Below are positions 3,369-5,363 of a DNA stretch of 64,000 bases, piece by piece. The position numbers were made by a program, and so were the translations under genes. Numbering within the stretch: the stretch's first letter is position 1; every line of letters begins with the position of its first letter. The notes beneath the pieces are model-generated. The model did not search any database, was not told where the DNA came from, and saw nothing but the letters and a program-made list of their open reading frames with translations. This DNA is from Escherichia phage ph0011, in sequence record OP557969.1. One strand, written 5' to 3'.

Positions 3369-5363
3369 ATGAATAATGAAGAATTGAAAAAACTTTTGTT
3401 GTCAAAACATATTAATTCATGGGTACATTTATACAAAGGGGACTCTCATGTGAGGGATCTCCTTTCTATTTTTGGAATAGAACCAAAAACTGATTTCGAA
3501 ATATATAAAATTCTATATATGTTCATGAATGATATATCAACAATCCCAACTGCATATTGCGGAAAAAAAGCAAGATATAAAAATTTTCAAAAAGGATTTT
3601 ATAAATTTTGCGATGATTATATTATTAATAAAAAAAATACATGTAATGTATGTCATGAAATGTATTATAAAAATCGAACAAATAAAACAAAATCAACATT
3701 AATGGGTATGTATGGTGTATCTAATGTGTCCCAGATCCAAGAAGTAAAGAAAAAGAAAGAAAAAACTAACATGGAGCGTTATGGTGTTTCTACTAATTTA
3801 CAAACATCAGAATCTAAAGAGAAAATCAAACAAACTAATATAGAGCGTTATGGATGTGAATATCCAAACCAAAACCCTGAAATATTTAATAAAGTAAAAG
3901 AGACAAATTTAAAAAAATATGGTGTTGAATTCCAAAGTAAAAGAAATGAAGTAAAAGAGAAAGCAAAAAATACAAATATCTTAAAATACGGTACTGAGTA
4001 CTCTTTATCATCACCGACGATTCGTGAAAAAATCAATAAAACAAATCTTGAACGATATGGTGGTAACCCACTATCAAATAAAATTATCCAAGATAAAATA
4101 AAAAATACCAATATATTGAAGTATAATTCATTTTATCCAATGAGCAATTTGGATGTTCAGAAAAAAGTTCATAATACAAATGTGGAAAGATATGGTGTAA
4201 AACACCCATCCCAGAATAATTCTATTATTGAAAAAATGAAAGAAACCACAAAAAATAGATATGGGGCTGAACACTACTCACAAACTGATGAGTATAAAGA
4301 GAAAATGTCACTTGCTCATCTAGACGAAAGATATACTATAATTGTTGAAAATATTGATAAAAACTATATTCCATTATTTGAAAACACAGACCTGATGATG
4401 AAAGTTAACACCGATGAATACCCATTTTGGTGTGAATATTGTGATGATTTGTTTTATAGTAAGTACAAAAATCATAAAGTGAAATGTAAGTGTCAGAAAA
4501 ATAATGGTCATTCCTTGAAAGAGAAAGAGTTAGTTGATTATATAAAATCATTAATACCAAATATGGAAATTATAGAAAATGACCGTTCAGTACTGAAACC
4601 TAAAGAGTTGGATGTGTATATTCCAGAACTTAAACTAGCTATTGAATTTAATGGTGTTTATTGGCATAATGATGAAAATATCAATTCTACTAAACATCAA
4701 GATAAGGTATTAGATTGCTTAAAACATGGTGTAAATCTTATTCACATTTATGAAGATGAATGGGATAACCCATTAACCAATAAAATTATCAAGGAACGTT
4801 TAAAGAATAAACTTCTAGCGTCTAATAGAATTTATGCTAGAAAATGTACTGTTAGAAACATAGACAAACAAGTAAGTAATAAGTTTGTGAAATCACATCA
4901 TATCCAAGGTGTTGCACAAGCAAGTATACACATTGGGCTTTACTATGGGTGCGATTTAGTTGCTGTTATGACCTTTGGTAAATCAAGGTTTGATAAAAAC
5001 TATGAATATGAATTAATCAGATACTGTTCATCTGGTACAGTTGTTGGTGGTGCATCAAAATTACTAAAATATTTCGAAACCGTATATAATCCACAATCAT
5101 TGTTGACATATGCTGATATGGATTGGAGTAATGGTAATCTTTACACGGTTCTTGGTTTTGAGTTAGATAGCTATACAGAACCTGGATATTTTTATTATGA
5201 CCCACAAACGCACGAGAGAATTTCACGTCAAAAATGTCAAAAACATAAATTGATTAAGAAAGGTCACGATATCAACTTAACCGAGAGACAAATTTGCTGT
5301 GATGTATTGGGATATTATAAGATTTACAACTCTGGTAATATAAAATACACAAAAAAATATTAA
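3369..5363 (+). CDS. homing-endonuclease-like protein: Cys-rich N-terminus, about 9 NUMOD3-like repeats, PD-(D/E)xK/Vsr-like nuclease motif, C-terminal domain of unknown function
   Basis: 664 aa; ~23-aa tandem repeats with consensus K.K.TN.ERYG; nuclease-like motif LAIEFNGVYWH...IHIYEDEW; sits between conserved neck and dNMP kinase genes. Confidence 0.6.
   Translation: MNNEELKKLLLSKHINSWVHLYKGDSHVRDLLSIFGIEPKTDFEIYKILYMFMNDISTIPTAYCGKKARYKNFQKGFYKFCDDYIINKKNTCNVCHEMYYKNRTNKTKSTLMGMYGVSNVSQIQEVKKKKEKTNMERYGVSTNLQTSESKEKIKQTNIERYGCEYPNQNPEIFNKVKETNLKKYGVEFQSKRNEVKEKAKNTNILKYGTEYSLSSPTIREKINKTNLERYGGNPLSNKIIQDKIKNTNILKYNSFYPMSNLDVQKKVHNTNVERYGVKHPSQNNSIIEKMKETTKNRYGAEHYSQTDEYKEKMSLAHLDERYTIIVENIDKNYIPLFENTDLMMKVNTDEYPFWCEYCDDLFYSKYKNHKVKCKCQKNNGHSLKEKELVDYIKSLIPNMEIIENDRSVLKPKELDVYIPELKLAIEFNGVYWHNDENINSTKHQDKVLDCLKHGVNLIHIYEDEWDNPLTNKIIKERLKNKLLASNRIYARKCTVRNIDKQVSNKFVKSHHIQGVAQASIHIGLYYGCDLVAVMTFGKSRFDKNYEYELIRYCSSGTVVGGASKLLKYFETVYNPQSLLTYADMDWSNGNLYTVLGFELDSYTEPGYFYYDPQTHERISRQKCQKHKLIKKGHDINLTERQICCDVLGYYKIYNSGNIKYTKKY

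Follow-up and report, generated by a model that had tools for sequence, protein, structure and literature searches.

A probable Hef-like homing endonuclease gene with a Mom-like domain in the neck–dNMP kinase interval of Escherichia phage ph0011

Introduction

Why does a gene for a protein of 664 amino acids (aa) lie between the conserved neck and deoxynucleoside monophosphate (dNMP) kinase genes of Escherichia phage ph0011, and is it a homing endonuclease gene, a modification-restriction module or a decaying remnant? The window, as we call the whole stretch of DNA analysed here, comprises 64,000 nucleotides (nt) of sequence record OP557969.1, and comparison with related records identifies the phage as an Asteriusvirus, a jumbo coliphage of the 121Q/PBECO4 type. 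The original prediction took the gene for a homing endonuclease or another selfish mobile gene. The open reading frame (ORF) lies exactly where that prediction had placed it (Table 1), and a database search matches its product, at 100% identity, to the entry 'endonuclease domain-containing protein [Escherichia phage ph0011]'. Sequence comparisons and structural models make it likely that the gene is functional and free-standing and encodes a homing endonuclease in the Hef-like branch of the Vsr-like (EDxHD) family. It is of an already-known kind, as databases name the family 'Hef-like homing endonuclease', and its assignment is a confirmation and not a discovery.

A discrete insert with a co-conversion footprint

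The gene is carried on a discrete segment of 2,016 bp, which separates the neck stop codon from the neck gene's terminator and has clean junctions against 121Q, PBECO4, phAPEC6 and fEgEco12. In the gene-less relatives, the neck stop codon directly precedes the same terminator, with a gap of ~8–12 nt. The 23-nt leader of the insert holds an AAAGAG ribosome-binding site, and the GC content of the insert is 25.5–30%, against 31–40% in its flanks. Among 47 related records the gene is present in just two, those of UE-S1 and TH47, and a search for presence/absence polymorphism, proposed earlier as a check on mobility, thus finds it absent from most relatives.

How the gene came to be in TH47 is visible in a seven-genome alignment (three carriers and four non-carriers, in window coordinates). 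From 501 to 2200, TH47 is 99.35% identical to the gene-less fEgEco12 and 85.7% identical to the carrier UE-S1. The relationship is reversed from 2201 to 3345 (84.9% and 96.5%, respectively) and again on the far side of the gene, from 5362 to 6300 (81.2% and 96.7%), while from 6301 to 8400 TH47 is once more fEgEco12-like (98.5% and 82.8%). Within this patch, TH47 and fEgEco12 mismatch at 348/2078 positions, as against 42/3799 elsewhere in the comparison (Fisher p = 7e-117), and the breakpoints are sharp, at 2221–2226 and 6240–6249. Because of these identities and breakpoints, TH47 is best described as a fEgEco12-like genome that has acquired the gene together with donor DNA from both sides of it, ~1.1 kb upstream and ~0.9 kb downstream. 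The patch, ~4.0 kb long, centred on the gene and encompassing the entire neck gene, is 96.5% identical to UE-S1. It is a co-conversion footprint, as expected when a carrier genome serves as the template for break repair, and is the strongest evidence for mobility. Along with the minority distribution, it bears out the earlier proposal of a homing or selfish gene.

The gene is under purifying selection in every domain. All three carriers (the window, UE-S1 and TH47) have an intact copy of the ORF, with a ratio of nonsynonymous to synonymous substitution rates (dN/dS) of 0.10 overall and 0.04–0.14 per domain. A homolog with 55% identity also occupies the same neck–dNMP kinase interval in every Alcyoneusvirus record found (among them RaK2, K64-1 and Muenster), where it follows the terminator and replaces the small ORF. 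This homolog is more diverged than the genes that flank it (82% identity for the neck protein, 70% for the dNMP kinase). The Alcyoneusvirus homologs mark the interval as a recurrent or ancient home for the family.

Three further observations concern the borders of the insert. The window and UE-S1 have their left tract in common, at 96–100% identity from ~1900 up to the gene, and identity between them falls from ~93% inside the gene to 71–90% just past its stop codon (5362–5450); this abrupt fall makes the 3' end of the gene a recombination boundary as well. Such boundaries at phage nuclease genes have been described in general (PMC10448857). Near the end of the neck gene, within its final ~110 nt, clustered synonymous differences (3231–3290) consistently separate the three carriers from the four non-carriers. 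These differences were considered as markers of a target site or of immunity, for which they are candidates, but they sit within the co-converted tract and so are not independent evidence. Finally, Salmonella phage SD-2_S15 is missing the small ORF together with the end of the neck gene and the initial ~120 nt of the dNMP kinase gene (the equivalent of window positions 3099–3190 and 3314–5850), and its neck 3' region is joined to the middle of the dNMP kinase gene. This deletion at the same hotspot could be the scar of imprecise break repair.

A Vsr-like nuclease domain

The motifs LAIEFNGVYWH and IHIYEDEW, which had been read as those of a Vsr-like nuclease, both fall within a domain for which the Vsr branch is indeed supported. 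In the Protein Data Bank (PDB), the only sequence match is I-Bth0305I (3r3p), at a phmmer E of 0.0024 and a family-profile E of 6e-7, and Foldseek retrieves DNA-bound Vsr (1cw0_A; E 2.4e-3, TM score 0.54). Hidden Markov model searches point the same way: the Vsr-clan Pfam family MTES_1575 matches 20 of 24 family members, and Vsr itself matches 8 of the 24. Four residues, D415, E426, N/D428 and H433, align with D196, E206, N208 and H213 of I-Bth0305I. Conservation among 120 homologs is close to complete, with D415 kept in 120, E426 and H433 in 119 each and H443 in 118; K446 is invariant. The two findings that would have spoken against the original prediction, universal presence at the locus and no conservation of the nuclease motif, are thus both contradicted.

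Other nuclease classes were considered and set aside. Classical PD-(D/E)xK homing enzymes such as I-Ssp6803I give no PDB sequence match, and an HNH identity was rejected, with no Pfam HNH match at E<=10. The PHROG family phrog_559, labelled 'HNH endonuclease', matches the protein at 4e-78; given that no HNH profile matches at that threshold, this label looks wrong for the family.

The Mom-like C-terminal domain

The C-terminal domain was recognised in the original prediction as distinct and was called unplaceable there; it can in fact be placed, as a GNAT domain resembling Mom of phage Mu. Two AlphaFold2 (AF2) models, built from 118-sequence alignments, cover the protein with very high confidence (aa 340–664, pLDDT 93.6, pTM 0.86; aa 1–349, pLDDT 92.5). 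Mom is the top Foldseek match for the domain, at E 2e-7, some 1000-fold better than the next GNAT. At the level of sequence profiles, 17 of 24 relatives match Pfam Mom (PF25680) at E<=1, the best at 1.5e-7, and several homologs carry a precomputed PF25680 match; the ph0011 protein itself falls under the Pfam gathering threshold (21.0 bits against a cutoff of 27.1, E 2.8e-4). In the AF2 model, helices inserted ahead of the final strands appear to take the position of the helix-turn-helix (HTH)-like insertion of Mom.

Residues were equated by hhalign against Mu Mom, using the numbering of PMC13219725, and conservation was counted over the same 120 homologs. R111, S124, D149 and R151 are essential residues of Mom (PMC13219725). 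The counterpart of R111 (R551) is present in 120/120 homologs, as are that of Y159 (Y592) and H511, the probable counterpart of H58. The catalytic S124 corresponds to S563, kept in 97/120, the Ser being missing in 19%, and D149 corresponds to D583, kept in 94/120 with Asn in a further 18. The position of R151 is D585 here, and only 53/120 homologs have Arg. The domain has a dN/dS of 0.07–0.08. The conserved Mom active-site residues support a GNAT domain that is active or binds a cofactor. The domain might read DNA by base flipping or might work as an active DNA acyl/aminoacyl-transferase; we favour a role in binding the target DNA, with the cofactor pocket kept.

Zinc ribbons and the DUF7487 array

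The cysteine-rich N-terminus noted earlier corresponds to a zinc ribbon that is partly degenerate in this protein relative to the family consensus CxxCG...CSxKC (CxxC...CxxxC family-wide). A second zinc ribbon precedes the nuclease domain, and both zinc-ribbon-like Cys motifs are kept across the family. Between them lies the tandem array of ~23-aa repeats. About nine had been predicted, which agrees with what we count: eight units occupy aa 137–299 with a period of 23 aa (22 in one case), each ending in [RK]-Y-[GN], and a degenerate copy stands on either side. The units are strongly basic, with the consensus E-[IV]-K-E-K-I-K-Q-T-N-L-E-[KR]-Y-G-V-E-x-P. In the AF2 model, each folds as a single helix of ~15 residues followed by a short turn, with 10 regularly spaced helices over aa 93–328.

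These repeats had been likened to NUMOD3, an identity that we reject, as the repeat region has no Pfam NUMOD match even at E<=10. They are DUF7487 repeats, and the likeness to NUMOD3 extends only to their being a module attached to nucleases. Pfam DUF7487 matches the protein at E 2.7e-39, far beyond chance, and the repeat region alone at E 1.3e-41. Copy number varies from 3 to 17 among homologs, and elsewhere the array is fused to HNH (P0219), T5orf172/MUG113 (P0122) and DUF559/MTES_1575 nucleases, the last without a Mom domain (P0123). Because it is fused to several nuclease classes, DUF7487 behaves as a nuclease-associated DNA-binding module, and the array here is probably a DNA-binding solenoid, one that has no counterpart among solved structures. 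Tandem Repeats Finder (TRF) detected no DNA-level tandem repeat in the region, and the repeats are therefore old. A hypervariable pair of positions that might form a code like the repeat-variable diresidue of TALE proteins was looked for, but no pair was conspicuous; entropy is highest at positions 4, 6, 8, 18 and 19, where it reaches 2.3–3.0 bits. A literature search for DUF7487 found no papers.

The family and its link to Hef

The PHROG 3339 family 'homing endonuclease' matches the protein at E 2e-165, and more than 3,300 related proteins are found in databases. A tblastn search yields 1,218 places in 438 phage records, many of them multi-copy, with up to 12 places each in Campylobacter phage records, and the matches are annotated as "Hef-like homing endonuclease", "F-LimIII" or "nuclease/acetyltransferase". 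What the relatives have in common is the core of nuclease and Mom-like domain, while their N-termini vary. In many phages, the copies are multiple, sporadic and located between core genes.

One homolog connects the family to a known homing locus. In the T-even (Tequatrovirus) phages Lv5cm (Salmonella phage) and FL23 (Escherichia phage), a 544-aa homolog (E 2e-41), which also has a CxxC ribbon and DUF7487-type repeats, lies exactly between nrdA and nrdB. The replacement of mobE by hef of phage U5 is reportedly the subject of a 2005 paper by Sandegren and colleagues, to judge from its title. This exchange takes place in the nrdA–nrdB slot (PMC2988022), and the "bacteriophage Hef type homing endonucleases" have been included in the Vsr-like/EDxHD family, citing Sandegren 2005 (PMC3239194). 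Selfish elements are densely clustered around the T-even homolog: nrdA of FL23 is split by another homing endonuclease gene and nrdB is interrupted by the I-TevIII intron.

Across whole records, UE-S1 and Klebsiella phage Muenster have four places each that match the protein, and therefore the ~350-kb genome of the window phage probably holds more copies outside the window. Inside it, tblastn found no paralogs of the endonuclease gene.

Comparison with known systems

The closest known systems are Hef and the 'Hef-like' enzymes of T4-related phages, F-LimIII/VII/VIII/X of Dickeya phage LIMEstone1 among them (PMC3296691). The Hef-like enzymes have the same nuclease and Mom-like core (30–43% identity over aa ~374–663), the same free-standing position between conserved core genes and the same sporadic, multi-copy spread. 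The ph0011 protein is longer than these (664 aa as opposed to 459–544 aa), has eight clear repeats (9–10 with the degenerate ends) where they have about 2–3, carries a second zinc ribbon and is found at a different locus. I-Bth0305I, the prototype EDxHD enzyme (3r3p; PMC3239194), likewise combines a Vsr-like catalytic domain with an N-terminal modular DNA-binding region in a phage selfish element. However, it is intron-encoded, has 266 aa with NUMOD2/HTH motifs and lacks a GNAT domain, whereas the ph0011 gene is free-standing, its product has DUF7487 repeats, zinc ribbons and an added Mom-like domain, and D222 of I-Bth0305I aligns with His443.

Mu Mom itself (8bv8; PMC13219725, PMC7261163) has the same GNAT fold, and the equivalents of its H58, R111, S124, D149 and Y159 are kept; identity is only 14–18%, the R151 equivalent is Asp, and the ph0011 domain is fused to a nuclease in a mobile gene. 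The activity that marks the Mom family is modification of the N6 of adenine in double-stranded DNA by means of Gly-tRNA. Fusions of Mom to restriction endonucleases (REases), noted in jumbo phages (Iyer et al. 2021, PMC7824862), belong to the same comparison.

The NUMOD modules of phage homing endonucleases are said to have been described by Sitbon and Pietrokovski in 2003. They are summarised in PMC3239194 and resemble DUF7487 as short repeated modules found on unrelated nuclease classes (Vsr-like, HNH and T5orf172/GIY-YIG-like in the case of DUF7487). By comparison with NUMOD3, DUF7487 has no sequence match at E<=10, a unit of 23 aa, arrays of 3–17 and a predicted continuous solenoid.

The locus and its neighbours

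The position between the neck and dNMP kinase genes, as first described, is confirmed, with the qualification that a small, highly variable ORF also intervenes before the dNMP kinase gene (Table 1). This 88-aa ORF is only 76–78% identical between phages whose neck proteins are 98–100% identical, and in the Alcyoneusvirus Muenster it is missing and the endonuclease gene stands in its place. Between the neck gene and the endonuclease ORF, no convincing upstream promoter or terminator of the ORF's own was found. Further upstream, annotation in relatives assigns a macro-domain (ADP-ribose-binding) protein (1096–1572), a putative peptidyl-tRNA hydrolase (1912–2289) and a glutaredoxin (268–516), an unusual set of genes to find just before neck and tail structural genes.

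Table 1. Features of the endonuclease locus in window coordinates.
Feature	Position	Strand	Details
Co-conversion tract, ~4.0 kb, gene-centred	2221..6245		TH47 patch that matches UE-S1, set in a fEgEco12-like backbone
Neck / head-tail adaptor gene, upstream flank	2536..3342	+	PHROG 211; 121Q annotation
Inserted segment, 2,016 bp	3346..5361	+	23-nt leader and ORF; junctions from blastn and multiple sequence alignment against gene-less relatives
Probable Hef-like homing endonuclease ORF	3369..5363	+	ATG start, 664 aa; PHROG 3339, E 2e-165; dN/dS ~0.10
Unassigned N-terminal four-helix region, aa 1–55	3369..3533	+
Zinc ribbon 1, aa 60–96	3546..3656	+	C64, C81, C92, C95
DUF7487 array, 23-aa basic helical repeat, aa 100–325	3666..4343	+	8 clear units, 9–10 with degenerate end copies
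Zinc ribbon 2, aa 350–376	4416..4496	+	C355xxC358...C373xC375; two beta hairpins in AF2 model
Vsr-like / EDxHD-type nuclease domain, aa 380–477	4506..4799	+	E413, D415, E426, N428, H433, H443, K446
Mom-like GNAT domain, aa 478–664	4800..5360	+	H511, R551, S563, D583, Y592 align with Mom H58, R111, S124, D149, Y159
Intrinsic terminator (hairpin and T-run)	5370..5397	+
Small ORF, 88 aa, downstream flank, highly variable	5446..5712	+	PHROG 34967, no function assigned
dNMP kinase gene, after small ORF	5731–6357

Discussion

We infer the following course of events for a Hef-like homing endonuclease at this locus. As no convincing promoter or terminator separates the neck gene from the ORF, the endonuclease would be expressed by read-through transcription from the late neck gene. 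In a mixed infection with a gene-less relative, the protein would bind DNA near the neck/orf88 junction by means of its zinc ribbons, its basic DUF7487 solenoid and probably its Mom-like domain. The Vsr-like nuclease domain would then cleave the bound gene-less allele, and recombinational repair templated by the carrier genome would copy in the gene together with its flanks.

Four points weigh against this account. A pure homing model leaves the retained Mom catalytic residues unexplained. In the EDxHD signature, the final Asp (D222 in I-Bth0305I) aligns with His443 (kept in 118/120 members), which means that the active sites are not identical, with the caveat that the alignment of this loop is uncertain. 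The Alcyoneusvirus homologs allow for ancient presence and loss within the history of the gene. Lastly, the link to the experimentally studied U5 Hef is drawn from position, annotation and the statement in PMC3239194.

The first of these points bears on a rival explanation in which the protein is a modification-restriction module in a single polypeptide, its Mom-like domain modifying the phage's own adenines and its fused nuclease attacking unmodified DNA of the host or of superinfecting phages. Jumbo-phage Mom-REase fusions have been read in this way, as modification plus restriction (Iyer et al. 2021, PMC7824862), and the retention of the Mom essential residues (R551 and Y592 invariant, S563 and D583 in most homologs), the standing of Mom as the closest solved structure and the low dN/dS of the domain all lend themselves to it. 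The active site is nonetheless imperfect on this view, given the Asp at the R151 position, the Arg found there in fewer than half of the homologs and the catalytic Ser missing in about a fifth. Most Asteriusviruses also lack the gene, a co-conversion footprint is centred on it, its relatives are scattered as multiple copies between core genes in many phages, and the homolog in the hef slot points to homing. Moreover, both genomes in a co-infected cell would meet the same enzyme, so that modification could not distinguish them. We therefore regard this explanation as improbable, while noting that it is not strictly exclusive of homing. We favour homing as the primary behaviour on the strength of the co-conversion, the sporadic and multi-copy occurrence and the homolog in the hef slot.

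A combined reading is similarly doubtful at present. Here, Hef-like enzymes would be bifunctional, with the Mom-like domain acting as a DNA adenine acyl/aminoacyl-transferase that immunizes the target sites of the carrier or the repaired product, and the DUF7487 array serving as a modular DNA-reading solenoid, of a type not solved before, whose repeat number sets the length of the site. The weakest proposal, a domesticated or decaying endonuclease remnant, immobile and inherited vertically in one sub-lineage with loss elsewhere, might draw on the 4–7% nucleotide divergence among the window, UE-S1 and TH47 copies, which implies no very recent transfer involving the window, and on the homolog in the same interval of the sister genus, but we reject it as highly implausible, since the ORF is intact in three carriers with a dN/dS of ~0.1 and all catalytic residues, and since vertical descent cannot yield a fEgEco12-like backbone with a sharply bounded UE-S1-like patch.

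As a probable Hef-like homing endonuclease gene, the ph0011 gene is ordinary, one more among thousands already named in databases. The trio of TH47, fEgEco12 and UE-S1 is an unusually clean natural record of homing; its tracts of ~1.1 kb and ~0.9 kb narrow the search for the cleavage site and show that core structural genes, in this case the whole neck gene, are shuffled between jumbo-phage lineages. The same architecture has entered two literatures with differing predicted functions, as a homing endonuclease (Hef/EDxHD) and as a momylase with a restriction nuclease (Iyer et al. 2021). With the mechanism and essential residues of Mom known as of 2026, the near-invariant R551, S563, Y592 and H511 make the question directly testable, and the bifunctional reading, if true, would turn a homing endonuclease into a mobile restriction-modification unit in one polypeptide. 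DUF7487, a confidently predicted solenoid found on at least three nuclease classes, is a candidate modular DNA-binding scaffold.

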